DNA of 54,495 nt from Verrucomicrobiota bacterium. GTDB lineage: Bacteria; Verrucomicrobiota; Verrucomicrobiia; Opitutales; Seribacteraceae. The stretch is from positions 1 to 54,495 of the forward strand of contig JAQBYT010000027.1 in assembly GCA_027622665.1 (NCBI GenBank), read 5' to 3'. Below the pieces are notes generated by a model. It was not told where the DNA came from. It saw only the letters and a program-made list of their open reading frames with translations, and did not search any database. The position numbers and the translations under genes were made by a program. The first letter of the stretch is position 1; each line of letters starts with the position of its first letter. This document shows, one piece after another, positions 1-54,493 of this stretch.

Positions 1-3000
1 TTTGCGGTCACCGTAAGTAGAGCCTACGACTACGTTGCGATCGTCGGCAACAGGTCCGGTTCCTTGACCCGCATAAGATCCGCCCGCGCCTCTAAGCTCG
101 AGTTCCCATGGAGTGTTGCTGAAACCGCCTCCGGCATTCACGATCGTGGTGCCACCCAAATTTGTGGGTTCGCCACCGGGACGACCTTGGCCGTTCTGGT
201 CGTAGGATTCTCCACCCGAGCCGCCGCCTACTCTGGCGGTGCCGCCGGGACCGCGTCCACCTACGCCCGATTGGGGCGAGGTTTCGGCACCCGTGCCGTC
301 GCCGCCGGAAGCGTTCAGGTCCACGAGAATCTCGATGTCTCCGTTGCTCTCGGTCTGAAGCGAAATCGGGTTGGTTCCCATGAACAATACCTGAAGGTTA
401 CCCGAGAGCTTGATGCTGTCGAACTTGTACTCCGCCTTCTTGTAGGCGAGGGTGTCTCCGAGAGGGGAGGTCCATGATTTCTCCACCACGGTTCCCGAGC
501 CGGAACGACCCGAACTGTGCGCCCAAGTGGCTGCACCCGTTTCGAAGGTGAGCGTACCGTAGCTGAACTCGAGCTTGTTTTCGGTCACGAAGATGTCGGT
601 GAGGTCGGCCCAGTCGGAACCCTTGGAGTTGGTGCCGAATGCGCGGAAGTGGTAGGTGGTGTTCTTGACCAAGTTCTCCAGTTGCGAGATTTGCTCCTTT
701 TGGGTGGAGATTTTTTTACCGTTGGAAAGGGTGGCGATGGACCAGAGACCGTCTTGGGCTGCATCCTGTGGCTTGGCTATGGTGCGGTTCGTGGGGCCTG
801 CGCCTGCGGGGGTCTTGATCGTCAGTTCCTGATTGGAACCGCTGGCGTGTTCACCGTGGGCGGAGGCAAACATGTAGTCGCCCGCCGTAAGGGTGACGGT
901 CTTGTAATGGTTTCCGCAGCAGTTTTGCCTGTCGGCGAGGCGCTCGTCGCCGTTGGCTCCGGATAGGGAGAAGATGCCGTCCTGATCGAGGTCGAGCCAG
1001 AGGGTGCCTCGATCGTCGTTGCCTTGGATGCCGAATTCGTAGTCGCCGGACACTTTTGCGGTGAAAGTACCCTCGAAGAGGGACATGTATAGGTCGTTAC
1101 GGTTGATGCCGTGGCCGTGGTTCACCCAGTCGCCGTCGCCGTTGAAGTCGTAACCGCGGTTGCCGGGACCTGCCTTGAGCACGCTTTCGCCGGATGGGGA
1201 CATGGCGATTAGACCACCGTTGTCGGAGAAGTCGAAGTAGCCGGCGGCGGGATTGTTCACGAAGCCCTTCACCCGCAGCTGGTTGGTATGCTTGATTACG
1301 GAGTAAATATTACCGATCTCGGCCTTGTTCGACCAAGCCGTGGTGCTCTCGGCCCCGTCGGAGAGACCCCAGTATACGGATACGTCGACCCCGGAGGCCT
1401 GTTCGGAGAAGTCGACCGGCAAGCCGTTGTAGGGATGACTGCCGTTCTGGTAGCTGAGACCCCACTTGTGGGCGAGGTAACCCTCGATCTTCTCGACTTG
1501 GTCCATGGCCAATGCCTTGTCATAGAAGAGAATTTCGGCGATCTTCCATTTGCCGGGCTGGGTGAAGTTGGTGCCGCCGTCATGGCGGGCCCCGAGGGTA
1601 ACGCGTCGATCGGTGGCGGGCATGACGGCACCGGTGTCGTCGATTTCATACTCTTGGCGACCATCGCCGCGCTGAAGGCGCTTGAGACCGTCGTACCGCA
1701 CGGTCCAGAAGTGGTAGCCGTCCTTTTGGTTAACGTAGGGGTTGGCTGCGGGGTCGTCGTCGCCCGTGGTGGCGCGAATGGTCATGCACATGCGATTGTC
1801 GTTGCCGCGCTGGCGGAACTGCCAACCTTGGCCACCGTCGCCGCGCTTGGAGATGATGGGAGACCAGCCGACGTTTCCGGTTGCCCGACCTGCCACGAAA
1901 ATGGTCATGTTTTCGAGGGAGTCGAAGGCGTCGCTGTCGTCATTGGTGAGGGCGAGGTAATCGTCGTCGAAGAAAATGCTCGGCAAACCGTTCTGTTGGT
2001 TCGTCACGTAGGCGGGTTCCCTGTTGGTGGTACCGAGGTTGGTCGAGTTGGCGTGGTTGCCTTTGCCCGATTTATCCCCCCAGAAGAGGACGCTGCCGTT
2101 CTCGGCGGGAAGGTCCGCCACGATCTCGCCGATCACGATGCCGCCGAAGTCGCCGTTGCCTCCGCCGTAGATGGCGGTCACGTCGGCCTGAGTGAGTGCG
2201 TCGCCGTAGATTCTGACGTCGTCCAGATACTCGGCGAATCGCTGGCCACCACCGTCATAGTTGCCCACGGTGTATATGGTTTCACCGGTGGCTCTGTCGG
2301 AGTCGCCCTTGTATACACCGTCGTAGTAAATGAGGGACTTGTTGGTGGAACCGTTGGAGACGAGCACCATGTTGTGCCAAGCTGCGGTGGTGTCCGCGGA
2401 GGCGAGATCGAATTCACCCGAGTCGCGGAAATCGCCGTTGCCGTTGGCATATACCCCTACGTCGTTGTTGCTATTCCTTACAATGAGGTGGTGGTGGTTG
2501 TTCTTGCCTCGGCTGAAGGTTCTCCATGCGCCGGTGCCGTAGAGATTCTTAAACCAGAAGGAGATGGAGAAGGTGGCGGTATGCTGGTCCCCGAGAGAAA
2601 CCCCATCGGGCTCGATTCGCATGCGAGCATTGTTTTTGTCAGTCGGTATCTGGAGAGACGAGTCCCCGAACTTCTTGGTGTCCTTATTGAATTGGGCTCC
2701 GTCGAGAAACTTTCCGTTGTAACCGCCACCCGAAGTATCGACCGCTGCGGCTCCCGTGGACTCGTCGAAGTTCCAGTAGCCGATGAGGTCGTTGTAGCGG
2801 GTGACCGATGGTCCGACGTAGGCGTCGGTCTCCGGGTTCTTGGAGATGGTGGAACTGTCGTTGGCGTCCAGCCAAAGCATAAGACCGGCGAAGGCGCCCT
2901 TGGTGAACTGGGAGGGGGCTCCGTTACCGACCGTGCCGTCTCCGATAAACACCACGTCGCTCTGCAATTCGGCGGAGAACACGGTACCGTCGGTAGCCAT

Positions 3001-6000
3001 GTTGCCGACAGGCTTGTTGCCGACCACGGGTATGACGGTGGTGGTGGTGGTGAAAGTCTTGGATACGTCCGACCATACGCCGCCGGTCGCGGCGGCGTTG
3101 AAGGCCATGAAGCGATAGTAGTAGGCCTTGCCCGGTACGAGATTGGCCAAGATCACGGAGAACTCGCCTTCCTGGTTGCCCGTCTGCTGGACGCTGGTCC
3201 AGGATGCGGCGGTGGTGCCGCCGTCGGTTTGCCCGTAGTATACGTCGATAAGCACGGAGGCGCCGCCGTCGTCGGTAATTTTTCCGTTGGCGATGGCGTT
3301 GGTGGCGGTCACGTTGGCGGGATCCTTTGTCTCGACCACGGGGTTGGTCGCCTCGACCGTGAGCTCAAGAATAATTTCGGCTGCATCGCCCGAAATCGCT
3401 GAACCGAGAGTGGTGCCGTCGGCATAGGAGAACATGAGGGAAATCTCGGCCACGCCGGAACGCTCGGGAGTACCCGTGATATTACCCGTGGAAGGATCCA
3501 TGGAAAGCCCGGCGGGCAAGTTGAATGCGGCAAACCCGTTGGGACCACCCGTGGCCTTCATGTCGTAGGCGTAGCTCTGCTTGGCAGTCGCGGTATCCTT
3601 CAGGTTGCTGGCGATGATCGGGGGTCCGGTCACGGCGGCATAGCCAACGAAGGTGGAGTTCAGCTTCTGGTTGTCGTAGGTTGCCTTCACCCAGTCGGCG
3701 GAGCGGGCCGCAGTGGATACGCGGGCTTCGTCGAAGGATGCCTGCATGGAGGAACTTATGCCGAAGGCGGCGTCTCCCGTATCCAATCCGGCGGAAGCGG
3801 CGGGGAAAGTTGCGGTGCCGTCGAGGGTGCCGTCTATGTAGAGCTTGGCTTGGCCGAGCCCCTTGTTCACGGTTGCCACGGCATGCGACCAAGTGTTTGC
3901 GTTCAATGCCCCGGAAGCCGTTTTGTTCACGGCGATTCCGCCGTCCAGAGCGTGCTTGAAGACGAGCTTGTTGGATCCGTCTATGCCGAAGCCGACGTCT
4001 CCCTTGCTAACTAAGGAAAGAGCGGATACGACCGAACCCCAGGGGCTGCCGGGATCGATATTCCAGAATCCGTCCTGAGCGCCGTCCGCGGGATTGATTA
4101 CGGCCCAATCCATGGAAGGAGTCTTGATCCATGGCTTGATGCGGGAACCGCCGCCACCTTCGGCGTGTATGAAGGCCACGAGGTGCTTGTCCCCGGCCAT
4201 CAGGTTCAAGTTGTTCTTCGTCCAGCTGCCGTTGCCGCCGATCTTCTCGTCGCTGTCGAACTGGTTGTTCTTGTTGAGGTCCATCCAGCCTACGGATTTG
4301 TCATCCGTGTCCGTCATCCTCAGCTCATAGGAACCGTCTTCGGGTACCACGAAGGTGGAGAGGAAGAGCGACATGTAGGTGTCCACTTGGACTATGCCGA
4401 TGCCCGCATCAATGAACTGTTGATCGCCGTCCAGCCAGATGTCCTCGCTGGTCCAGATTTTCTGGCCGTCGTAGTCGGTCCTCTTGGAAAGCAACTGATT
4501 GACGTCGTTAAAGTAAGTGTCGCCGGCGGGCCAAGTGTCCCAACCGCGAGCGAGAAAGGCGTTCTTCAGCATGCCCGCCTCACCCTTGCGCTTCACCCAG
4601 CCTGATAGGGTGTAGTTGTCCATCTGTACGCTGTTTAGGTTGCCCGGAGGAGCCGTCATGGCGCCTGCGGAACCCGAACCCTGGTCGCGGAATGGGCCGA
4701 CCATGGGCGTGGAAACGTTTCCGTCCACGAAGCCCGCTGCGTCCGCGTGGTTGTAGAAGAAGGCGGAGTCCAGCTGTTTGCCTGCGACCGTCTTGTTCAT
4801 GTGCCACACGGCGGCGAAATCATTCGTCCAGGTGGTGCCGTCGTAGGTGTAGGTCTCCATGTCGGTCTCGGCGGGGTTCGCCCATGCGATGGTGAGTTTG
4901 GTGGAGCTGGTGACCTTGGGCGCGTTCACCCAGACCTCAGCCGTGCCCACGGGGTTGTTCCAGTTCTCGATTTCGTACTTGAGCTCTTGTCCGTCGTCGT
5001 CGTATACGCGAAGATCGAAGCCGGTGGAGTCGCCGTCGCCGTTTTGGGCGAGGAAGCTGTAGAAGGAAAAGCCGTCGAGCTTCGAATTGTCGAGGCGTAA
5101 AAGTACGGGGAAGTCAGCCAGTTCCTCGGATCCGGCATAACCGGAGAGGGTGGCTTCCATCTTGTAGACGAAGAGGTCGAGATCCACGATCTTTACGGGC
5201 AATTTCTTGGTCACGGTCACGCCCTTGCCGGTTACGGAGAAAGTAACCTCGGAGGCCCCGCCGCCGACGGGAGTGCCGGAGATTTCGCCCGTGGAAACGT
5301 TCAAGCTCAGTCCCGCGGGAAGACCCACGCCGCTTAGACTGTCGACCGTACCGAAGGTGGGTATAGTGAAGCTCATCGCCTTGCCCTTCTTGCCGTATAC
5401 GGCGGCGACGTCGCCGAAGAACGGAGGTCCTGCCACGTCGCCGAAGCCGAACAAGTCGGCGTCGTACTTCTGGTTTTCGTAGGCGTACTTTATCCATTCC
5501 GCCGAGCGGCGCACGGGGGCGATGCGAAGCTCGTCGATCTTGCCGTCCCACGCATTGTCGTTCATATCGACTTGATTACCGATGCCGATGCCCTTCGAGG
5601 TGTCTCCGGGGGCGGACATGTCGTTGTTGAATTTTTCCACGCCGTCGTTGTAGCCGTACACCTTGCCCGCCACACCGTCGAAGACCATGGTGATGAACTC
5701 CCACTCGGAAGCCTTCCAGTCGTTTACGAGATCCTGGCTATAAGTCGGATTGTCTTGGGCGCCGCGACCGTGAACTTGTTTCTGGTTGTTGTCGCGGACC
5801 ATGAATTCGAAACCGAGCTTCTCGTTCGGGTGGCTCTTGGCGGAAAGTATGCGTTGGTGGTTGATGTCGTTGTTGTTGCCCGAGGATACCGCGCTGCCCT
5901 CGTACTTGAGCCACATGGAGGCAGTGAAGACGGAACCGAGGTTCAGGTTTGCGGAAGCCGGAATTACGGCTCCGCTGCCGTTGCCGGTCTGGAAGTCTTG

Positions 6001-9000
6001 AGCACCGCCCAGGATACCGCTGGCGCTGTAGTCGACCTTGGTCTTGGAGTTGGCATGGTTTCGGTTGGGAGAAGCGTCCAAAATCTGCGTACCCTCGTTG
6101 TCGTCCATGTTCCAGCGTCCCGCGAAGTCGGACCAAGTGGAACCGTTGTTTACGTAGGCGGGGAAGGACCCTGCCTCGGCGGCGTTGCCCCAAAGCATGT
6201 TTATAGTGGCTCCCTGAGCGGCCACGATGGGATCGTTGGCGGGACCGAAGTCGCCGTTGCCGTTGCCGTAGATTGCGGTGATGTCGTCGGAGGTGAGAGC
6301 GGCTTTGTAGAGGCGGACGTCGTCGATCACGCCCTCGAAACGGAAGTCGTTTCCGTTGCCCGTCCAATATCCGATGGACATCTTGTCGTCGTGCAGGTTC
6401 AGGTCGGCCCTGTTCGCATTACCCGAAACGATTTTGACGCCGTTGACGTAGATGCTCCTGTTCTTGCCCGACCATATGGCCGCGACGTGATTCCAAGATC
6501 CGGCGGTCACGGGACGTGTGGTACCTTTCACTCTGTCGGGGTTTCCGTCACCGCCCTTGAAGACGTAGGACTGGCTTCCGTTTCCATTGGCATCCCAGTC
6601 CCACCAGAGGAGAACGGTGTTGGCGTTGTTTACGTTGTTGGAGAAAATGGCGCCGTCTCCCGAATTGTTGGTGCCAAGGGAGTCGAGCTTGGCCCAAGCC
6701 GAAATGGTCACACCGGAAACCTTGCTGTTGGTACTCTTGAAACTGGCATCGGTCTCCATGCGGCCCGCGGAATTGAAGTGGATGCCCTTGCCGAACTTGG
6801 CGTCGACCCAGTTGGGACTGCCGCCGCCCGTCCAAGTTGCGTTGTTGTCCTTGCCGCTGAGATCGCCCGCCTTGGTGCCGGAACCTTCGTTCAGGCTCCA
6901 GTAAGCGCCGAGATCCTCCGGACGAGTGATGCTCACGCCGCTGTAGGTTTTCAGCGTACCTACCTTTGGCACCTTCACCCAGATGCGGGAAGTGCCCCCG
7001 GGGTTCCATTCGTCCACTTGGTAGGGTAGGAGAGTACCGCCCGCAGCATCGGTAAAGCGAAGGTCGCGAGCGTTCGGAGAGGCGACCTGCGAGTACTTGA
7101 AGCCGGGAGCGGAAGCCTCGCTCAACTTGTAGTTGGCGGGGAATTCGTAGAGATTGTCGTCTCCCGTGTAGGCCAAGGTGACGGGCATCGAGTATAGCCA
7201 CTGGTCGAGGTCCACCACGTTCAACGTGATTTCCTTTACGGCCGCCGCATAGGCGGTGAAGGCAGACACTTTAAAGGTGAAGCTGCCCACGGCGGTGGGA
7301 GTGCCCGTAAGAACACCGGTTCCCTTATTTACGCTGAGCCATGCGGGCTCGCCATAGGCATCGAAGTTCAAGGGACCGTTGGAAGCCTTTATCTGATAGC
7401 GGAAGGGCTTGTTCAAGCCGGCGGCAACGATGGTTGCGGAAGTGACGTAGGGGGTGACGTCGATTATGCCGAAACGGAAGACGTCGGCGGTTTTCTCATC
7501 CGCATTGCGAGGCAGAGACCAATTATTGCCGCCCTCGGGATCGTAACCGAATCCGGTGGGCTTTTGGGCGCGTCCGGCGCCGCCTCCTCCGTTGGACATG
7601 CGAACTTCGAAGTCGAACCAGCCGCCTTGGCCATAGTCCTTCGTGGCGGTCGTTTCGCGATTCCAGCCCGAGTCGTTCAGAAGAATCTCGTCGTTCACCT
7701 TTAGCCAAGTCTTGTCGTCGATGTCCTCCTGGAATGAAATTTTGCCGTCGTCGTCGTAGATCTGGCCGGTGTAGACCACGGTCCAGTTGTCCTTCCAAGG
7801 CGGCTTCGTCCTGGATTCGGATACCGTCGGTCCCAGGGGATCGATCCCGTTTACGGCTCCCGAATAGGAAGTGTCGGTATCCAGATTTCCGGGGTTTTCG
7901 GCAAAGCTCATGTTTCCCGTGAGACCACCGGCTATAAGGCCGGGTGAGGAAAGCGGTTCCGCCTTGGCGGTGAAAATTATGCTTTCGGGCGTCCAAGTGG
8001 TACCCGCTGAATTAGTAAACGCCGTACGCACGAAATATACGTTGGGACCGCCGATATCGCCCGGGTTGAGCACGCCGCTGGGTACGCCGGGAAGAACTTG
8101 GCCGAGGTCTATGTTGTTCTGCCACGAACCGGGAGTGGTGCCACCGTCGGTGGTGCCCCAGTAGAACTTACCCGTGGTAGTAGCGCCACCCGTAGCTTCC
8201 ATGCTTGTATTGAATACGGCTGCATCGGAAGTGATGTTGGAAACGATGTTGATGTTTCCGAGCACGGGCTTGACCGCATTCGCGAGCGTGGTGAAAGTCT
8301 TGACCGTGGAACGAACTGTGCCACCGGAATTGACGAACTTGAAGCCGAAGTGATATGTGGTGCTTTTATTCGGAACGTTTGCAGTCAGAATAAAGGGGCC
8401 GACATCCTTGACACCAAGCACACGCTGATTCTGCCATAAATCGAGTCCCGGCACGATGGTGAAACCGTTGGCCGTGCCCCAATAGGCGGTGACAATCGGA
8501 GCTTCTCCACCGGTGTATTGTATGCTCCCGGAAATTTTAGCGCTGTTGGCGTATACGGAAGAAGCGTCGTCGACGCTGATCACCGGAGCGGAGGTCGGCA
8601 GGGTGAGGGTCATGATGGCGATGTTGGTGGCATCGCTCCCATTCACTATCAGGTAAATATTGTACGCGCCACCGACGGTGGGCGTGCCGGATATGACACC
8701 CGTAGTGGTGTTCACGCTAAGCCCCGGGGGCATGCCATAGGCATCCAGCAGGGCGTTCGGTTCATCGGAGGTGATGGTGTAGGAGAAGGCTTGGTTGAGG
8801 TTTGCCGAGACCGCCAGGGAACTGGTGATCTGGGGATCGTCGCCCGAAGGTTGACCATCCCCGCCGTTGTGAATCTCAGACACGTCCGCAGGGGTTAGCT
8901 CCACGTTGTACACGCGGAGATCGTCCACCTTGCCGTACCACCAGTTGCCGTTCCCGTTCCCGTTCGATCCGAGATACCAAGTGTCGGCCGCGCCCCAGTT

Positions 9001-12000
9001 GCGGCCACGGTCAGTCATGGAGGACCACTCGATCCCGTCCATGTATATGCGCATGGCGCGAGGGTTCTTGTTGTTGGTCATCACCCAGTGCGTCCAGCGT
9101 CCTTCGTAGTCTGCGGGAACGCTGTCTTTTTCAACGCGATCGATACCGCCGTCGCCGACGTCCAAGTAGATTCTACCGTTGCCCCACGGGAGGTGCATGT
9201 TGATCACTCGGTTATTTCCGCGCTTGGACTCGATGATGCTGGTGCTGTTGGGAAGCTTGTCCGGGTTTCCGTAGGCCCAGAAGGCGATGGAGAACTGATT
9301 GTCGCTGCTGGGCGGGTGAGCAGCAATCGGCAATTGAATGGATGCTTGGTCGAATTCGAGAGCTTTGCCCACTTTACCCGTGGTCCATGTGGCTGAGCCG
9401 ATATCGCCGATGTTGTTGTTCTTTCCGGACTTGTCTGCCGTCGTGGCGCCCGTGCCTTCGTCGAAGGACCACAAGGCGAGAAGATCCGACTTGCGGGTAA
9501 TCACGATCGTGGGCGTAAACGGAACCGCCAGAGGAGACCATGCGGCGCCGCCGGCGTTGACGGCATAGACGCGGAAATAATAAATGCTGCCGACAGTAAG
9601 GTTGGTCACGTCGGCGGTGAAATCGCCCGTTGCCAAGGTGCCGAAGTCGATCTCGTTGTCCCACTTGGTGTTGTCGAACTTGTCCACGGCGGGGTTCTGG
9701 CCGGCGTCCTCGTTACCCCAGAGGATCTTAACTGTGGGGTATTCGCCCCCGGTTTTGGCTATGTTGCCCTTGAGGGTATGGACGGCGCCGACGGTTGTGG
9801 AATTGCTTTCTCCCAGCTGCGGGGGAGAGAGGCTGGAAAGGGTGTTGAACGACTTTGTGGCGGTCCAAGCCACGGAACCGATTCCGCCTTGGTTGCGGGC
9901 GCCTAGGCGGTAGTAGTATTTCTTGCCGATGAACAGGCCGAGAGCGCGAGCGCGGAAGGTGTTGGTGTTTTCATAGGCGCCGATCTTGATTGCTTTTTCC
10001 CATGCGAGGGGATCGTCCCCGGCGTCGACAAGGCCGTAATAGGCCCAAACATCGACCGTGGTATCGCCTCCGGTGCCGGTGACGGTTCCCGTGAGGTCGG
10101 CCCCGTAGAGGCCTATTTCGGATGCGTCGTCCGCGGTAACGGAGGGAGCGGAGGAAGCCGCCGTCACCCTGATCTTGGTTTTCCAAGTGCCGGTCAAGCC
10201 GTTGGCGGTGGATACGATGAGAGTTACGTTGAAGGAACCTGCGGCGGTGGGGGTTCCGGAGAGTTGCCCCGTGGAGCTGTTGACGGACATCCATGCAGGT
10301 GCTTGGTATATACCAAACCAGTTGGGAGAGAAGCTACCCGAAATCTTGTAGTGGTTTACCTTCAGTCCGACGTTGCCAGCCAATTTGGTCGTAGTGACCT
10401 TCGGCGCGACGGCGTTGGCATAGGGATCGTCTCCCATGTAGGGGTGGGAGGATGGCAGGTTGATACCCCACTTCTGGGCCAAATACCCTTCCACCTTCTT
10501 GCGGTTCTCTTCCAGCAAGATTCCTTTGTACATGATGAACTCGGCCACTTCGCAATTCGAACTCTCGCCGCCGCCTCCGTAGGCGCCGAACATGATTGTT
10601 GTGGGAGCAGGGTTGTTGTCGTGGCTGTTCACACCATCCTTGCGCAGGACGCCGTCCATCCAAATCCAAGCCTTGGGAGTCACGTTTTCGTTGTTTGCCT
10701 TGCTCGGTTCGTTGGAAGCGACGAAAACGTGAAAAGCAGTGTCGCTGCCAATCCCGCCGTGATCAATCCACATGTTGAAATGATGTCGGGATATCTGGTT
10801 GCCATGGTGCCCGAACAACCAGTTGTTGCTGGATGCAATTACTCGTTCGTTGTCACCGCCCGTGTAACGGGATACCCCGAAAGCGGTATAGCCGACCGGA
10901 AGGAGATCGCCTTCGAAGTTCTTGGTCGTGTAGGTGCGGTCGTTCGTGTACTGGACCACTTGGTGTCCGTTGGGTCCTTTCACTAGCTTGGGATCTCCCA
11001 CTACGTTCGACATATGGTTGCCGGCTCCGGATGCATCGGACCAAGTGGTGATCGTCTGGGGTGCGTCGGGATCGACCACTACGTCGGTGATCTCATTGCC
11101 GTCGAGCCAAAGAGCGAGCCCGCCGTGAGAATCGTTGCGAAAACCGGGAAGCTTGAAGGGCAAAGTCGCAGTGGTGGAAATGTTGGCGTAATTGCCGTCG
11201 GCGCTCTCCACGCTGTGTAGCGGGATATTAACCGAAACGTCGCTCGGGTAGGTGGTTGGCGTGAGCGTGAAGGTGTAGGTGGAGCCCGAACCGGTGAAGT
11301 CCGTAACGGCGCCGCCGGTCACGTTCAGGTCTGCCGCGGTGAACCCGGTTACCGAAGTAGCGGTGGTTTCCACCTTGAAGTTCACGGTGACGGTCTGTAT
11401 GCGCTTGCCCGCGTCGTCCGCCGTGATGATCGGATTTAGTTGCGGCCAAAAGTCGCCCGCATATATGTCTTCGACTTCGCTTGCGGCAAGTTCTGCGTCG
11501 TAAATGCGGAGGTCGTCGATCTTGCCGTACCACCGGCTCCCGTTGCCGCCGCTGTTGGAACCGAGAAACCACCTCACGGGCGGGCCTAAGGACTTTGTCT
11601 TGCCCGTGCCAATCCCGATCTGGATCTCGTTCTGATAAATCCTCATGGTGCCCGCTCCTCGATTGTGCGTGACTACGTAGTGGGTCCATTGCCCCCACAA
11701 GGGACCGGGGTTGTCATCGGCATTCGGAGGTTTGATATCTATGCGGTCGTACGATCCATGGCCTGAATCAAAGTACACTTTATTGTTGTTCCAAGGCCAA
11801 TGCAGGTTGATAACCCGACCGCTGGGACCCGCCGATTCCATAATGGAGGTAGCCTTTCCGGGAAGCTTTGCTGTGTCCCCGTTCATCCAGAAGGAGATGG
11901 AGTATGCCGTACCTGAGGCGGGTGGGTGAGCGGAGAGGGGGAGAGCCGTGCTCTTGTCGTCGTAGCTGAACGCATTGCCGAACTTACCCGTTGTCCAGGT

Positions 12001-12492
12001 GGCGCCGCCTATGCCCATGTGGTTTCCCTTTGCACTGGAGTCGAAGGTTTCGGAGCCCGTGCCCTCGTCGAATTTCCAGTGGGCGAGCATGTTGCTCGCA
12101 CGAGTTACGGCACCCTCTATATAATTGATAGTGGAGCTCATCGCGGGGGTATCGACGTTGGCCGAATCCTTGGCCGCCCCTGCGGCTATGCTCAAGGTGG
12201 CTTGGCCGGGCCAAGAGTTGACCTTGACGTCCATGCTGTAGTTACTGGCCGAGATCTGTGTGAAGTTGGAGAGTGTGCCGCCCGTTACGGTTACGTCGGA
12301 AGCATCGAACCCGGTGACGTTTTCCGGTACGCCGGATTTGGCAAACTGGATATTGATGCTCTCTTTGATTCTCGAGGTCTCATTGAGGCCGACCAAGAGT
12401 GCCGTGGTGCCGAATAGATTCGGCGTGACCAGAAAGACGGCGCAGAAGGCGACTAAGTTGAGGAGGATGTGTTTGTGTGTGTTCTTTGTCAT
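1..12492 (-). CDS. Giant secreted multidomain surface protein (>=4164 aa, 3' end beyond window): signal peptide, Ig-like, LamG/ConA-like, putative Ig (He_PIG-like), FN3-like, PA14-like, DUF2341-like domains, Gly-rich region
   Basis: Manual translation from ATG at 12492: MTKNTHKHILLNLVAFCAVFLVTPNLFG (signal peptide). Frame open in all segments translated down to position 1; no track ORF ends in this frame, and long antisense shadow ORFs follow it throughout. Motifs: AHWKFDEGTG...GKIDDLRIY (LamG), GLSVNTTTGVISGTPT (He_PIG), DLRFTD...IWVKVP (DUF2341), YYFRVYAVNAGG (FN3-like), YMSLF...NDDRGTLWLD (PA14-like). Confidence 0.93.
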   Translation of the reverse strand, partial: MTKNTHKHILLNLVAFCAVFLVTPNLFGTTALLVGLNETSRIKESINIQFAKSGVPENVTGFDASDVTVTGGTLSNFTQISASNYSMDVKVNSWPGQATLSIAAGAAKDSANVDTPAMSSTINYIEGAVTRASNMLAHWKFDEGTGSETFDSSAKGNHMGIGGATWTTGKFGNAFSYDDKSTALPLSAHPPASGTAYSISFWMNGDTAKLPGKATSIMESAGPSGRVINLHWPWNNNKVYFDSGHGSYDRIDIKPPNADDNPGPLWGQWTHYVVTHNRGAGTMRIYQNEIQIGIGTGKTKSLGPPVRWFLGSNSGGNGSRWYGKIDDLRIYDAELAASEVEDIYAGDFWPQLNPIITADDAGKRIQTVTVNFKVETTATSVTGFTAADLNVTGGAVTDFTGSGSTYTFTLTPTTYPSDVSVNIPLHSVESADGNYANISTTATLPFKLPGFRNDSHGGLALWLDGNEITDVVVDPDAPQTITTWSDASGAGNHMSNVVGDPKLVKGPNGHQVVQYTNDRTYTTKNFEGDLLPVGYTAFGVSRYTGGDNERVIASSNNWLFGHHGNQISRHHFNMWIDHGGIGSDTAFHVFVASNEPSKANNENVTPKAWIWMDGVLRKDGVNSHDNNPAPTTIMFGAYGGGGESSNCEVAEFIMYKGILLEENRKKVEGYLAQKWGINLPSSHPYMGDDPYANAVAPKVTTTKLAGNVGLKVNHYKISGSFSPNWFGIYQAPAWMSVNSSTGQLSGTPTAAGSFNVTLIVSTANGLTGTWKTKIRVTAASSAPSVTADDASEIGLYGADLTGTVTGTGGDTTVDVWAYYGLVDAGDDPLAWEKAIKIGAYENTNTFRARALGLFIGKKYYYRLGARNQGGIGSVAWTATKSFNTLSSLSPPQLGESNSTTVGAVHTLKGNIAKTGGEYPTVKILWGNEDAGQNPAVDKFDNTKWDNEIDFGTLATGDFTADVTNLTVGSIYYFRVYAVNAGGAAWSPLAVPFTPTIVITRKSDLLALWSFDEGTGATTADKSGKNNNIGDIGSATWTTGKVGKALEFDQASIQLPIAAHPPSSDNQFSIAFWAYGNPDKLPNSTSIIESKRGNNRVINMHLPWGNGRIYLDVGDGGIDRVEKDSVPADYEGRWTHWVMTNNKNPRAMRIYMDGIEWSSMTDRGRNWGAADTWYLGSNGNGNGNWWYGKVDDLRVYNVELTPADVSEIHNGGDGQPSGDDPQITSSLAVSANLNQAFSYTITSDEPNALLDAYGMPPGLSVNTTTGVISGTPTVGGAYNIYLIVNGSDATNIAIMTLTLPTSAPVISVDDASSVYANSAKISGSIQYTGGEAPIVTAYWGTANGFTIVPGLDLWQNQRVLGVKDVGPFILTANVPNKSTTYHFGFKFVNSGGTVRSTVKTFTTLANAVKPVLGNINIVSNITSDAAVFNTSMEATGGATTTGKFYWGTTDGGTTPGSWQNNIDLGQVLPGVPSGVLNPGDIGGPNVYFVRTAFTNSAGTTWTPESIIFTAKAEPLSSPGLIAGGLTGNMSFAENPGNLDTDTSYSGAVNGIDPLGPTVSESRTKPPWKDNWTVVYTGQIYDDDGKISFQEDIDDKTWLKVNDEILLNDSGWNRETTATKDYGQGGWFDFEVRMSNGGGGAGRAQKPTGFGYDPEGGNNWSLPRNADEKTADVFRFGIIDVTPYVTSATIVAAGLNKPFRYQIKASNGPLNFDAYGEPAWLSVNKGTGVLTGTPTAVGSFTFKVSAFTAYAAAVKEITLNVVDLDQWLYSMPVTLAYTGDDNLYEFPANYKLSEASAPGFKYSQVASPNARDLRFTDAAGGTLLPYQVDEWNPGGTSRIWVKVPKVGTLKTYSGVSITRPEDLGAYWSLNEGSGTKAGDLSGKDNNATWTGGGSPNWVDAKFGKGIHFNSAGRMETDASFKSTNSKVSGVTISAWAKLDSLGTNNSGDGAIFSNNVNNANTVLLWWDWDANGNGSQSYVFKGGDGNPDRVKGTTRPVTAGSWNHVAAIWSGKNRSIYVNGVKIVSGNANRADLNLHDDKMSIGYWTGNGNDFRFEGVIDDVRLYKAALTSDDITAIYGNGNGDFGPANDPIVAAQGATINMLWGNAAEAGSFPAYVNNGSTWSDFAGRWNMDDNEGTQILDASPNRNHANSKTKVDYSASGILGGAQDFQTGNGSGAVIPASANLNLGSVFTASMWLKYEGSAVSSGNNNDINHQRILSAKSHPNEKLGFEFMVRDNNQKQVHGRGAQDNPTYSQDLVNDWKASEWEFITMVFDGVAGKVYGYNDGVEKFNNDMSAPGDTSKGIGIGNQVDMNDNAWDGKIDELRIAPVRRSAEWIKYAYENQKYDADLFGFGDVAGPPFFGDVAAVYGKKGKAMSFTIPTFGTVDSLSGVGLPAGLSLNVSTGEISGTPVGGGASEVTFSVTGKGVTVTKKLPVKIVDLDLFVYKMEATLSGYAGSEELADFPVLLRLDNSKLDGFSFYSFLAQNGDGDSTGFDLRVYDDDGQELKYEIENWNNPVGTAEVWVNAPKVTSSTKLTIAWANPAETDMETYTYDGTTWTNDFAAVWHMNKTVAGKQLDSAFFYNHADAAGFVDGNVSTPMVGPFRDQGSGSAGAMTAPPGNLNSVQMDNYTLSGWVKRKGEAGMLKNAFLARGWDTWPAGDTYFNDVNQLLSKRTDYDGQKIWTSEDIWLDGDQQFIDAGIGIVQVDTYMSLFLSTFVVPEDGSYELRMTDTDDKSVGWMDLNKNNQFDSDEKIGGNGSWTKNNLNLMAGDKHLVAFIHAEGGGGSRIKPWIKTPSMDWAVINPADGAQDGFWNIDPGSPWGSVVSALSLVSKGDVGFGIDGSNKLVFKHALDGGIAVNKTASGALNANTWSHAVATVNKGLGQAKLYIDGTLDGTATFPAASAGLDTGDAAFGISSSMQASFDEARVSTAARSADWVKATYDNQKLNSTFVGYAAVTGPPIIASNLKDTATAKQSYAYDMKATGGPNGFAAFNLPAGLSMDPSTGNITGTPERSGVAEISLMFSYADGTTLGSAISGDAAEIILELTVEATNPVVETKDPANVTATNAIANGKITDDGGASVLIDVYYGQTDGGTTAASWTSVQQTGNQEGEFSVILANLVPGKAYYYRFMAFNAAATGGVWSDVSKTFTTTTTVIPVVGNKPVGNMATDGTVFSAELQSDVVFIGDGTVGNGAPSQFTKGAFAGLMLWLDANDSSTISKNPETDAYVGPSVTRYNDLIGYWNFDESTGAAAVDTSGGGYNGKFLDGAQFNKDTKKFGDSSLQIPTDKNNARMRIEPDGVSLGDQHTATFSISFWFKNLYGTGAWRTFSRGKNNHHHLIVRNSNNDVGVYANGNGDFRDSGEFDLASADTTAAWHNMVLVSNGSTNKSLIYYDGVYKGDSDRATGETIYTVGNYDGGGQRFAEYLDDVRIYGDALTQADVTAIYGGGNGDFGGIVIGEIVADLPAENGSVLFWGDKSGKGNHANSTNLGTTNREPAYVTNQQNGLPSIFFDDDYLALTNDDSDAFDSLENMTIFVAGRATGNVGWSPIISKRGDGGQGWQFRQRGNDNRMCMTIRATTGDDDPAANPYVNQKDGYHFWTVRYDGLKRLQRGDGRQEYEIDDTGAVMPATDRRVTLGARHDGGTNFTQPGKWKIAEILFYDKALAMDQVEKIEGYLAHKWGLSYQNGSHPYNGLPVDFSEQASGVDVSVYWGLSDGAESTTAWSNKAEIGNIYSVIKHTNQLRVKGFVNNPAAGYFDFSDNGGLIAMSPSGESVLKAGPGNRGYDFNGDGDWVNHGHGINRNDLYMSLFEGTFTAKVSGDYEFGIQGNDDRGTLWLDLDQDGIFSLSGANGDERLADRQNCCGNHYKTVTLTAGDYMFASAHGEHASGSNQELTIKTPAGAGPTNRTIAKPQDAAQDGLWSIATLSNGKKISTQKEQISQLENLVKNTTYHFRAFGTNSKGSDWADLTDIFVTENKLEFSYGTLTFETGAATWAHSSGRSGSGTVVEKSWTSPLGDTLAYKKAEYKFDSIKLSGNLQVLFMGTNPISLQTESNGDIEILVDLNASGGDGTGAETSPQSGVGGRGPGGTARVGGGSGGESYDQNGQGRPGGEPTNLGGTTIVNAGGGFSNTPWELELRGAGGSYAGQGTGPVADDRNVVVGSTYGDRK

Positions 12493-12569
12493 GACTCGTG
12501 GGCCGCTAAGCGGCGATCGGGTTCATCGTTGTTTTAAAAGGGAAGGTTCGATTGATTTAATAATACTAC

Positions 12570-12627
12570 GGGCACGCGAGTATGTGCGAGGGTACGCGAA
12601 AGACACCCTCAAGAGGGCGTCTCTTTC
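12570..12627 (-). promoter_or_regulatory. Candidate leader elements of the giant gene: hairpin plus 10-bp phased repeats
   Basis: Minus-strand hairpin GACGCCCU-CUUG-AGGGUGUC within 12598-12627; plus-strand units GGGCACGCGA/GTATGTGCGA/GGGTACGCGA at 12570-12599. Confidence 0.35.
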
Positions 12628-13220
12628 AATCGTCTGACTTGAAACGTTAAGAAGTGTAAATTCTTTCAAAATTCGAACTGGTGGAAGTTCTTGTGAAGTA
12701 TTGATTACCTATTATTAGCCAAAGTTTGCCAAATAATGCATGCCAATGGCAACTTTTTTTAATTCATTTCGTAAAACGTTTACTTACAGGTTCTTGTGGG
12801 ATTGTTTTTTGCATTGTTTTTTGCAAGTACACAAAGTTATTTTCTAATCAGCCGATTTTCGCCTTCTGTATTTATGCCTTATTGTGGCTATATATAAAGC
12901 AATAAATACCCATTAGCGCCAATTAGATTTCGAACTGAAACCGTCATGTCCCCGAGGTGTTTTTTTGTAATTTTCGTTCAAAGTTTATCAAGTAGTGAAT
13001 TCAAATATTTTGTTTATCCTTGGCTATCTTCGGATTGTAACCATCAAAATCAAGGATTAATTAAGCTTTGCTTGAGGTATACGATAGACTAATGCGAGAG
13101 GAAAGTGAACTACAGTTGGGGGAAACTTCATGCGATTTAGTTTGCTTGAACCTGCTTTGCCCTACATAAAGTGATGGGTGGTAAATTAGTTTATAAAACC
13201 TAGACTACGGAGTAACACTT

Positions 13221-18798: not shown

Positions 18799-20181
18799 TC
18801 AGATTATCAAGTCAAATACACGTTGAGCCGACAGGCGTGAGTGGAGCATTGCTCGGGAAGTAGCTTCTTCAAGTATTTGGTTTTTGGCCATTTTAGTCAT
18901 TTCATAGGCCAAATCGACGCTTGAGGCTTGTTCCAACGCGATCGTTTCCTTCTGAGTTTTAGTGCCGAGCACATTCATGCGAGCTTCAAACGCAGCAACT
19001 TCTCCGGCAATCACGCCTATTTGGTATCGAACATTGCCGCGCTCCTCGCTCAGAGCATCTAGTGATGACGCAGCTAGTCTGGAACTTTTGATGGAAAGGT
19101 GCTCGAGATCGGAAAAACCAATCGCATAGAGTTCCATAGTACCTCCCTCCGAATCAATTAAGACGGATCGGTCGGTAAGGTTGCTTTTCTCAATCTCGGC
19201 ATAGTATTCCCAAACGGTGGAACTTCCTGCTTGGCGAGTGTAAGGAAAACCACCCGGCGTGTTCTCGCTTTCATTTACCACGAACTTTATTTCGGTATCG
19301 CCATAGGGAGAACCGGATGTTTTGGGGTAGTCGTCGTTCGTTTTGAACATCTTGTAATCAAGACCGTTGCTCGAGTACCAATCAAGTTCGGCCTGCGAGG
19401 TTTGGGAGGGGAATTCGGTCCCTACGTCTTTGTCGTGCAAGGAAACGCCAGTGTTTCCAGAATCAGTGGTCGAGTTGTTAATGCCCGCACCAAATTCAAG
19501 AGAGAAATAGTCAAAATCCCCATTGAGTTGAGCATTCGCCGAGTCAGGAAAATTCAACCAATGGTTGGATCGATATTCGCCGGAATCAAAAATCATATTT
19601 GAACCGTGATAGACTTTCATACGGTCCGTTTGCCAGGTGGGATTCCACCAAAGATGGATCTTGCCGCGCTTGGCGCCGATATCCACTGTCTGCTCTTGCG
19701 CTTCCCAACCGCCGTCCGACACTCCTAGAACAGGGAATCGCCCTTCGTACTTGGCGGCCAAAGGATCAAACAACTTGGATCCGAATTGCTCCTCAGCGGA
19801 TAATCCGGAAAGACTTTTCTTGAGGGCTAAAAACTCGAACTCCAAATTCTCACGATCGAAATCATCGAGCACGGGATCAGTAGATTGATAGGCAAGTTCC
19901 TCCATTCGTGAAAGAAGCTTAGATGTGCTCTTTAGCCCTTCGGCTTGAGACTGGACGAAGGAAAGAGCGTGCTGAACCGTAATTTTTGCAGCGTTCTGTG
20001 TTTTCAATCTGGCCTGGAGACCCGATGCAAAGCGATGCCCCCCGAAATCATCGGTTTGACCGTTGATTCCTGCGAATCTATTGCCCGAGGAAACGAGACG
20101 GGATGAATGAAGCATTTCTCGTTGGCGAATTCGCGAACGAGCGAGATGCATTGATGAATCGGATGTGGAACCGATGAGCAT
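18799..20181 (-). CDS. Divergent flagellin-like protein with central beta-rich insertion
   Basis: Flagellin N-like helices (SSGNRF...DDFGG...ALSFVQSQ...LSRMEELAYQS...DRENLEFEF) and C-like end (SLDALSEERG...VDLAYEMTKMAKNQILEEA). Confidence 0.8.
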   Translation of the reverse strand: MLIGSTSDSSMHLARSRIRQREMLHSSRLVSSGNRFAGINGQTDDFGGHRFASGLQARLKTQNAAKITVQHALSFVQSQAEGLKSTSKLLSRMEELAYQSTDPVLDDFDRENLEFEFLALKKSLSGLSAEEQFGSKLFDPLAAKYEGRFPVLGVSDGGWEAQEQTVDIGAKRGKIHLWWNPTWQTDRMKVYHGSNMIFDSGEYRSNHWLNFPDSANAQLNGDFDYFSLEFGAGINNSTTDSGNTGVSLHDKDVGTEFPSQTSQAELDWYSSNGLDYKMFKTNDDYPKTSGSPYGDTEIKFVVNESENTPGGFPYTRQAGSSTVWEYYAEIEKSNLTDRSVLIDSEGGTMELYAIGFSDLEHLSIKSSRLAASSLDALSEERGNVRYQIGVIAGEVAAFEARMNVLGTKTQKETIALEQASSVDLAYEMTKMAKNQILEEATSRAMLHSRLSAQRVFDLII

Positions 20182-43063: not shown

Positions 43064-43615
43064 CTACTTGCCACCCTTGACCTTTATGGAGACGCTTCCT
43101 TTTACCGTTGCAGGTGGCTTGAGGTCGGCATCTTTGGGGCCAGCATCCTTGGGGGCAGTACCTTTCCATTCGCAGACATAGCCCTTGACCTTGCCGGAGA
43201 AATCGGTGGCGTCCTTCCACTTGCCGTTTACGCCGTTAAGAACGAGAAAGTTGTAGCCGGTGGTAGCACTGGGCTGTTTTGCATCCCAGTTCTTGTAGAC
43301 GAATTTCTCCGCATTGTCCCAAGTCCATTTGCCTTCCTCAAACTCGTCGGTTCCTCCGAGCCAGATGAGATTGTCCTTGGCTTGTCGTCTTATGAATTCG
43401 TTTTCCTGGTCTGTGCTTACTGCTACGAGAGCTCCACCAATGTCTTCGCAGGCAAACTTGGCTTCCCACCAAGTACTGTTGGTATCGAGGAAGGCCTTGT
43501 AGTGGTTGCCCCGAAAAGGCACGGAGTCCTTGGGGGGTTCGACGTTGACGGCATGGACGGAAGCCGCAATGGAGAGCAGAACGGATCCGATGAGTACAGG
43601 TAACTTACTATTCAT
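43064..43615 (-). CDS. Secreted C-type lectin domain protein
   Basis: Signal peptide; TWWEAKFAC...GGALV...ENEFI, IWLGGTD...EGKWTW, NWDAKQP, WKD, GYVCE. Confidence 0.88.
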   Translation of the reverse strand: MNSKLPVLIGSVLLSIAASVHAVNVEPPKDSVPFRGNHYKAFLDTNSTWWEAKFACEDIGGALVAVSTDQENEFIRRQAKDNLIWLGGTDEFEEGKWTWDNAEKFVYKNWDAKQPSATTGYNFLVLNGVNGKWKDATDFSGKVKGYVCEWKGTAPKDAGPKDADLKPPATVKGSVSIKVKGGK

Positions 43616-53164: not shown

Positions 53165-54493
53165 TTACATGCCCCCGCTCAGTCCCATCAGCGTGCGATC
53201 GACGTCTACGCTAAGCCGATTGTGCTTGGTAAGGGAATCCGTAGCAGCTCTAAGCAGAATCTGGCTCTTGGCCACTTCCACCATTTCCGCAGCCATGTCG
53301 GCATCCACGATGCGACCGCCAGCCAACTCCAAATTCTGAATATTTGTCTCCAACCGAGACTCGCTGAAGGCCAGACTGTTCGTGGTGGCACCGTTGACGG
53401 CTCTGACATCGGTCAATGTCTGAATGAAGTTATTAAAGTCGGCGTGAGAAAAATCCCACAAATCCTTTCCGGTGTCGTCCAGTCCCTGTTGCACTCCGGA
53501 AACCGTTCCGCCTGTCGCGTTAACCGTGTATGTACCTGCAGCTGTAGCGGCAACACCCGCAAGGTTTACGTCAATTGTACCGTTGGCATTTATGCTTGCT
53601 GTGGCTCCCGCGAGAGTGGCGGAAACTGGATCCGTCACTGTGACTACAGGAGCGGGTTCAGCCTGAGAATAACCCGATCCGATCCCATTCAACGCCGTGG
53701 GTATGGAAGCTATGGTACCGTTAGAAGTGGCGATTGTGTATGTTCCTGTCGGCGAGGCTGCGGTTAGGCTTACGCCGGTGAGGTCAACATTGAGCGTCCC
53801 ATCGACGTTAATGCCGGTGACGGAAGCAGTGCCGGTGACGTTGGTACTACCGGGGTCGGTCACGATTATCGTCGGCACGGGTTCCGCAGGATTATATCCT
53901 GATCCTACATTCGAAAGGCTAGTCTGTGCTAGGCTTGGAGATCCCGTGGCGGGTGCTATCAGTATGTCGTTGGCAGAAGTGGTACTATTCGTAAAGGTAA
54001 TCTGGAGCGAGCCGCCTACTTGCCCGATGCCTGATGCGGTCAAACCTCCTGCGGGCGTGAGGCCCGTACCGACGTCAGTGAGGGTAACGGCCACGATTTC
54101 ACCATTTCCATAACTACCCGAATCTGCCGCTATGGTTTCGTTTGAAAGTTGAAACATTGTTCCCGGATTTGCTTGCACTTGGTATGTACCCGGAGGGGTG
54201 CCCGCAGGCACGGCGCTCAACGTAAGGTTGAGAGTGCCATCGTTGTTGTTGGTTGCCGTGGCGGACATTCCTGCGACTCCGGTCACATTTGCCGTAACCG
54301 CTTCGCCCGTCGCGTAACCAGTGCCTACGCCTGTGAGTGAGCCCGGTGTTGTCGGAGCGGCCGTCAAGTTCCCCGGAGCGACGTTGACGGTGATTGGATT
54401 GGCAGAAGTGGGTGTGCCAGAAAAAGCGATTAAGACGGAACCGTCCGGTTGGCCTGTACCTGTCGCGGTGATGGGTGTCGCGGTGGCATCGAC
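53165..54493 (-). CDS. Flagellin-like protein with tandem ~70-aa beta-rich repeats (5' end beyond window)
   Basis: Flagellin C-terminal domain (LTDVRAVNGA...NIQNLELAGGRIVDADMAAEMVEVAKSQIL); frame stays open from the track TTG at 54367 to the window edge (VDATATPITATGTGQPDG...). Confidence 0.88.
   Translation of the reverse strand, partial: VDATATPITATGTGQPDGSVLIAFSGTPTSANPITVNVAPGNLTAAPTTPGSLTGVGTGYATGEAVTANVTGVAGMSATATNNNDGTLNLTLSAVPAGTPPGTYQVQANPGTMFQLSNETIAADSGSYGNGEIVAVTLTDVGTGLTPAGGLTASGIGQVGGSLQITFTNSTTSANDILIAPATGSPSLAQTSLSNVGSGYNPAEPVPTIIVTDPGSTNVTGTASVTGINVDGTLNVDLTGVSLTAASPTGTYTIATSNGTIASIPTALNGIGSGYSQAEPAPVVTVTDPVSATLAGATASINANGTIDVNLAGVAATAAGTYTVNATGGTVSGVQQGLDDTGKDLWDFSHADFNNFIQTLTDVRAVNGATTNSLAFSESRLETNIQNLELAGGRIVDADMAAEMVEVAKSQILLRAATDSLTKHNRLSVDVDRTLMGLSGGM

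Follow-up and report, generated by a model that had tools for sequence, protein, structure and literature searches.

The window analysed here is the whole 54,495-nucleotide stretch formed by positions 1 to 54,495 of contig JAQBYT010000027.1 (assembly GCA_027622665.1), from a bacterium of the Seribacteraceae (Verrucomicrobiota; Opitutales). It begins with a single open reading frame (ORF; window 1..12492, - strand) that encodes the N-terminal 4164 residues of a giant secreted multidomain protein and is open at the end of the contig (C14). Within this frame, window 3030-583 (- strand) is confirmed to encode one fibronectin type III (FN3) domain in three pieces, two of its loops carrying inserts. 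A sequence-only reading of the same DNA had proposed this arrangement, with a concanavalin A-like (ConA-like) domain in the first gap, itself split by a full LamG domain, and a PA14-like domain in the second, giving a branched protein rather than beads on a string. That shape is supported by profiles, relatives, a structural model and in-silico excision. Throughout, G000 denotes this genome, C-numbers its contigs, L-numbers the loci of relatives and X-numbers sequencing runs.

The gene probably continues on contig C28 for approximately 4,300 more residues, making approximately 8,500 in all, because the last 157 bases of the ORF equal the start of C28 at 98.7% identity and the two translations overlap in the same frame. 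At its C28 end the gene would encode a C-terminal domain common to the complete proteins of the family. The hydrophobic N-terminus resembles a Sec signal as read by eye, without a dedicated predictor. The same genome encodes paralogs of 13,430 and 8,761 residues.

Pieces of the split domain and their rejoining

Intact copies from this genome (21 FN3-like, 19 ConA-like, 45 LamG and 7 PA14 units) served to build the profiles, and the split region was left out. An intact FN3 unit stands directly before the split one (window 3046..3342, - strand, as are all features below; profile positions 1-98, 96 bits). Next comes piece A of the split FN3, with strands A and B (2947..3030), recognised by aligned ortholog pieces and by model strands. 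The BC loop then opens into the first strand of the ConA-like host (2827..2883; 11.4 bits alone, positions 1-27), followed by a complete LamG domain (PF13385) at the second level of nesting (2146..2790; profile 1-213, 115.6 bits; Pfam E-value 3e-14) and the C-terminal part of the host (1426..2106; profile 21-221, 114 bits; PF13385 E-value 3e-7). Both the ConA-like and the LamG domain score above the Pfam cut-off. Piece B (strands C and C'; 1303..1401) matches FN3 profile positions 31-57 at window 1386-1306, the C'E loop carries the PA14-type domain (739..1284; profile 2-171, 79 bits), and piece C supplies strands E, F and G (583..702; profile 59-98; hhalign 99%). A comparison of the intact and split alignments by hhalign reported piece C only.

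Rejoining the pieces in silico restored domains that align to the profiles of the intact copies. The ConA-like host scored 140.8 bits when rejoined against 122.2 for its C-terminal part alone, a gain of 18.6 (intact copies scored by leave-one-out, 110-187). An intact ConA-like reference copy and profile seed (10435..11118), for which about 20 residues at the insert site had been claimed, has 19 there against approximately 260 in the split copy. FN3 pieces B and C joined reached 54.1 bits, compared with 23.7 and 27.0 apart. With piece A added, the rejoined FN3 scored 59.2 bits over all 98 positions (intact copies by leave-one-out, 34.6-107.6), the best of the six piece orders, its join points having been optimised over 2,880 combinations. 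Blind excision, which removes a candidate insert and rescores the flanks, called the LamG in the ConA-like host (gain 16.4 bits) and the PA14 in FN3 (20.9 bits).

Structural models and fold comparisons

The intact FN3 neighbour was modelled by AlphaFold2 with a predicted local distance difference test (pLDDT) score of 97.9 and strands at residues 2-9, 16-24, 30-37, 50-57, 60-65, 73-82 and 85-98. Its top fold matches are FN3-type chains (Z score up to 11.7, root-mean-square deviation (rmsd) 2.0, 91 residues aligned), and the host unit thus has a true FN3 fold, a seven-strand sandwich of sheets ABE and C'CFG. The AlphaFold model of the split region (816 residues, 34-row alignment) has a pLDDT of 83.1. 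Here piece A forms strands at 2-12 and 18-28, piece B at 544-555 and 568-576, and piece C at 781-787, 792-801 and 804-815, and these seven strands correspond one for one to those of the intact unit. Block pLDDT values are 89/70/90 for piece A and 85-95 for piece B. The inserts are placed in the BC and C'E loops because of these strand positions. In the FN3 topology the only neighbour of strand E is strand B, which here lies in piece A, and the modelling of residues 781-787 as a strand would imply its pairing with that piece.

In the model, the ConA-like host assembles across the inner LamG. Single ConA-fold chains align across the insert, such as 1wd3 (Z 19.2, rmsd 3.2, 231 residues aligned, model 41-525), and CBM40 chains align over model 45-527. 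The inner LamG (model 76-289) matches domain 4 of AbnA with Z 19.8, and the PA14 domain matches Cea1A (Z 15.2) and the PA14 of an RTX adhesin, 6m8m (Z 14.1). A Foldseek search with the whole model gave nothing but jelly-roll matches, with an rmsd near 20. A relation to clostridial neurotoxins was considered and rejected: only the jelly-roll fold is common, identity is 10-21% and the Pfam matches in the window fall under the cut-off. In the parts scanned no other toxin family turned up, and the protease and translocation domains of the neurotoxins were unmatched.

Relatives with fewer or other inserts

Relatives with and without each insert, which the sequence-only reading had asked for, were found. 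The complete layout occurs in one frame in L002 (87% identity) and L003 (63%), and is partly covered in L004, L006, L024 and L028. The inner LamG is absent from 13 rows, among them the C34 paralog of this genome, and L070 and L071 also have no PA14. In L069, L100 and L101 a ConA-like domain occupies the PA14 loop, and a F5/8 type C domain does so in 17 events from 17 genomes.

A quick tree of 26 rows, computed on host-only columns with L028 left out, places the six LamG-bearing rows on one branch (Shimodaira-Hasegawa-like approximate likelihood ratio test support 100). The two rows without PA14 fall inside the PA14-bearing group (82, 91), and this nesting suggests that PA14 was lost in one lineage. 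Between the window and L028 the inner LamGs at this site share 34% identity and the host parts 52-76%, whereas the window's inner LamG reaches 50-58% identity with seven LamGs located elsewhere. Being closer to LamGs elsewhere than to its same-site counterpart, the inner LamG was exchanged as cargo. The proposal that the protein grows by insertion of lectin domains into loops thus stands as regards insertion; growth by gain only does not, since PA14 was apparently lost and the inner LamG exchanged.

Further observations were made in neighbouring domains of these relatives. In L061, L063 and L078 the FG loop of the FN3 before the doubly split FN3 carries an unnamed domain of 150 residues that a LamG splits in turn; the C-terminal part of this domain has no Pfam match. 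L070 has a GH115_C-like domain in that FG loop instead.

Possible recombination of cargo

Direct repeats flanking the junctions were absent among the 20 largest of 23 repeat families, and there is no step in GC or in GC3 (GC at third codon positions) between modules; thus there is no sign of a mobile element or of recently acquired foreign cargo. At the DNA level the LamG end is 74-79% identical to other copies in the genome, and a stretch of 32-41 bases at the ConA-like end is 85-92% identical. Cargo may accordingly move by recombination among paralogous domain copies, with the domain ends as handles. Window 1456-1492, at the ConA-like end, is matched by many other contigs in four runs and by the genome's other copies, and is a possible recombination handle. 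In run X3 a diverged patch of the same length lies in the inner LamG (window 2623-2703), possibly an allelic mosaic.

Split hosts across the family

The use of split hosts was surveyed in 62 ORF stretches from 28 genomes, picked through matches to this query and so not a random sample. Blind excision gave 153 insertions in 53 of the 62 ORFs and 27 of the 28 genomes; 131 had a gain of at least 12 bits, and 1 of 300 shuffled-flank controls passed. Eighteen insertions lie at depth 2 and one at depth 3. Low-gain calls of LamG in LamG may be tandem look-alikes, which the shuffled-flank control does not address. A stricter first pass gave 104 events with none in 1278 controls, and missed all but one event of the window protein. 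That protein contains two more insertions: a DUF2341-type domain (window 6154..7182) split by a LamG at approximately 6951-6211, with an excision gain of 16.0 bits and a Pfam DUF2341 match to the N-terminal part only, and a LamG (3664..4818) split by a PA14 (4566-4060), flanked by LamG profile matches 2-106 and 70-210 (gain 11.2 bits).

By profile coverage, 142 of 261 FN3 matches look split, 36 of them doubly. The 261 comprise 111 intact units, 43 starting after the BC loop, 36 with pieces B and C apart (19 genomes), 60 without the last strand, 3 split mid-way and 8 partial matches. Those without the last strand are followed by a LamG or ConA-like domain within 25 residues in 51 of 60 cases, compared with 26 of 101 intact units. 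The FG loop is a third socket for cargo, because in five cases read by eye the missing last strand reappears behind the insert. The depth-3 nest lies in L092 (residues 3430-4340 of a long ORF), where an FN3 holds a ConA-like domain, which holds another, which holds a further domain. L095 (residues 4275-5524) has the same kind of nest, read by eye only. At residues 10461-11105 of the 13,430-residue ORF on contig C2 of G000, an FN3 FG loop houses a LamG, which houses a second LamG, which houses a PA14; both inner steps were called blind, the FG step by eye. Additional cargo kinds in the family are the carbohydrate-binding module (CBM)-like F5/8 type C and GH115_C domains.

A probable branched adhesin and its alternatives

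Taken together, the pieces, their order, folds and loop positions, and the relatives with fewer or other cargo support a branched layout, as judged from sequence and model. We consider it likely that FN3 serves as the split scaffold of a giant secreted surface protein, with lectin-type heads branching from a node and glycan-binding adhesion as the probable role. Strands A-B, C-C' and E-F-G would fold as one sandwich and keep the axis of the chain. The BC loop would project the ConA-like domain, itself bearing the LamG on the loop that follows strand one, and PA14 would project from the C'E loop, each cargo leaving and re-entering at one spot through a short two-stranded stalk. Three lectin-type heads would thereby branch from one 100-residue node, and a multivalent glycan-binding adhesin is the most likely form of such a protein. 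The heads may bind glycans (for PA14, via calcium at the twin aspartates), and the protein may attach the cell to particles, algal cells or polysaccharide.

Several points weigh against this interpretation. As regards function, ConA and LamG folds also serve protein binding and catalysis, and the last 293 residues, on the C28 part, have no match in NCBIfam, with no anchor or secretion family recognised there. The architecture could be right and the heads not adhesive lectins at all: they may be spacers, protein-binding modules, or CBMs of a foraging scaffold or capsule-like layer. Among the top fold matches are indeed glycoside hydrolase accessory domains (AbnA domain 4, an arabinofuranosidase and the CBM40 of a sialidase), the other cargo is CBM-like, and glycan binding is a prediction only. 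However, the parts scanned yielded no catalytic family, the twin aspartates at the Pfam-aligned calcium-site position of the window PA14 are kept in 18 of 19 rows, and the exchange of cargo would fit a search for new ligands. We regard non-adhesive heads as unlikely.

On the architecture, the Pfam PA14 match (E-value 6e-5) scores 23.3 bits, 0.7 under the cut-off of 24, and searching the solved structures by sequence with the PA14 insert yielded no significant match. The predicted template modelling score of 0.56 makes the relative placing of the domains unsure, and the assembly of the FN3 pieces into one sandwich is inferred from strand pattern and confidence. FN3 chains are absent from the best 50 rows for the whole model; this is uninformative, because the 50th row has Z 12.3 and the Z of 11.7 of the intact unit falls below it. 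The genomes surveyed are kin and their loci were picked by the query, so the family counts are not independent.

The profile signal of piece A is low as well, and this bears on a second alternative: the only genuine insertions would be PA14-in-FN3 and LamG-in-ConA, with A a linker that has decayed and B plus C a truncated domain of five strands following the ConA-like one, and the nesting would have a single level. Piece A scores 1.6 bits alone and adds only approximately 5 bits to B and C; in a two-strand profile it scores 3.2 bits, a value reached by 94 of 1377 background windows. Eleven of 500 random replacements score as high, the best 8 of these 11 being the starts of intact FN3 copies, and blind excision did not call the ConA-in-FN3 step in the window copy. 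On the other hand, the ortholog pieces aligned to A score 2.8-28.7 bits as FN3 starts (22 rows), piece A is kept at 93% in L002 and 76% in L028, and the same step was called blind in the C34 paralog (gain 16.6 bits). Because of the ortholog pieces, the two strands modelled at a pLDDT near 90, and a start six residues behind the previous intact FN3, as in tandem pairs, piece A is accepted as the start of the FN3 domain, and a decayed linker is judged quite improbable.

An assembly chimera of repeated domains, conceivable for a metagenome assembly with a gene broken at the contig end and many paralogous domains, has next to no chance of being right, because one contig of the independent DNA run X12 spans window 400-3381, and so all junctions, with 100 differences and the layout is the same in the diverged L002 and L003; the gene also has no long near-identical DNA repeats.

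Comparison with known systems

The sequence-only reading knew of no described case with this depth of nesting, a claim that did not hold. An A1-B1-C-B2-A2 arrangement in ndhH, hosts with several inserts and a six-level case in cyanobacterial RNA polymerase are reported in a survey based on ECOD (PMC13114784); polymerases with nested inserts are also described elsewhere (PMC2662426). In the survey the insert is smaller than the host in 77% of events, whereas here a 98-residue host carries cargo of approximately 700 residues; the survey's main text does not use the words fibronectin, concanavalin or PA14 (PMC13114784).

The closest parallel is with RTX adhesins, which contain split Ig-like domains as well as split beta-roll, vWFA and CBM hosts bearing further domains (PMC12077191; bioRxiv 10.1101/2025.09.30.679566), and whose split hosts project ligand-binding domains off axis (PMC10865825; PMC12077191). 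As in AhLap, FrhA and MpIBP, a lectin-type domain, PA14 included, interrupts a small beta-sandwich, which projects it from the axis; a ligand-binding domain can also be a split host in its turn (beta-roll, then vWFA, then CBM), and single domains are swapped between relatives. The window protein thus shares the split-domain adhesin design, a discontinuous beta-sandwich from which a ligand-binding-type domain buds. It differs in that its host is FN3 rather than a bacterial Ig-like domain, and takes two inserts (BC and C'E) where one is described for theirs, placed behind the first strand or ahead of the last two. Furthermore, its cargo is mostly ConA/LamG, it has an N-terminal hydrophobic signal, and split nodes occur along the whole chain rather than in a distal region only. 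The RTX nonapeptide pattern had no match in the four proteins of this genome checked, both gene halves included, and one match among 39 listed ORFs over 3000 residues. Judged by the lack of nonapeptides, the window protein is not an RTX adhesin, though it would work like one.

Regarding PA14, the twin-aspartate motif binds sugar through calcium (bioRxiv 2020.11.18.389155). The window domain resembles the lectins MpPA14, MhPA14, Cea1A and Flo5A in fold (Z 12.8-15.2) and in twin aspartates at the aligned site; identity is 10-13%. Giant extracellular proteins are described in the PVC (Planctomycetes-Verrucomicrobia-Chlamydiae) phyla, and LamG is common in huge archaeal proteins; insertion, nesting and Opitutales are not treated in the accessible parts of these sources (PMC11573180; bioRxiv 10.1101/2023.11.21.568195). 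A literature search, reaching few subscription journals and no figures or supplements, turned up no account either of this family or of FN3 hosts that are split twice. Depth of nesting is not new; what differs here is a giant non-RTX family in which most FN3 matches look split, the exchange of cargo at fixed loops, and one three-deep relative.

Genomic setting

The genes adjoining the giant gene are housekeeping genes. Upstream of it lie approximately 730 bases of AT-rich non-coding DNA (window 12493-13220). Approximately 850 partly glycine-rich residues follow the split FN3 (window 583-1 and C28 residues 1-670) and recur in relatives, the C28 part without a match in Pfam or NCBIfam. Elsewhere in the window, two separate ORFs have weak flagellin matches (18799-20181 and 53165-54493, both - strand); one of the pair matches the N-terminal helix only, the other (400 residues scanned) the C-terminal helix, with a weak MG2 match. 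Among several unannotated ORFs, one at 43064-43615 (- strand) encodes a small protein with a C-type lectin domain (E-value 5e-15).

Among 36 other genomes of the family, 34 have a match to the split region, as do, weakly (E-value approximately 1e-5), 3 of 24 genomes from other families of the order. The nearest relatives with a name bear the titles uncultured Opitutales, Puniceicoccaceae or Opitutia, and the 20 runs containing the stretch are aquatic, seawater or ice metagenomes. Contigs from RNA libraries cover the stretch, a coverage that does not demonstrate transcription.

Significance for the family

The split-domain principle extends beyond RTX adhesins to giant proteins of an unrelated family in marine Verrucomicrobiota, whose FN3 host accepts two inserts. 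Split hosts escape linear domain annotation, and branched proteins are consequently read as beads on a string. The natural series of empty, singly and doubly loaded, nested and swapped hosts makes it possible to test directly how a domain of 98 residues folds with 700 more inserted into it, and offers natural templates for multi-armed FN3 scaffolds. The BC, C'E and FG loops are those that engineers vary in monobodies. More widely, and at slightly less than an even chance, this marine Opitutales family may possess a plug-in system with FN3 sockets at BC, C'E and FG and further sockets in ConA/LamG domains, where lectin cassettes would be gained, lost and swapped by recombination at conserved domain ends. 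The outcome would be tree-shaped adhesins as long as 16,000 residues, their glycan specificity being reshuffled one node at a time; the family-wide socket system with its exchange of cargo deserves to be followed up.

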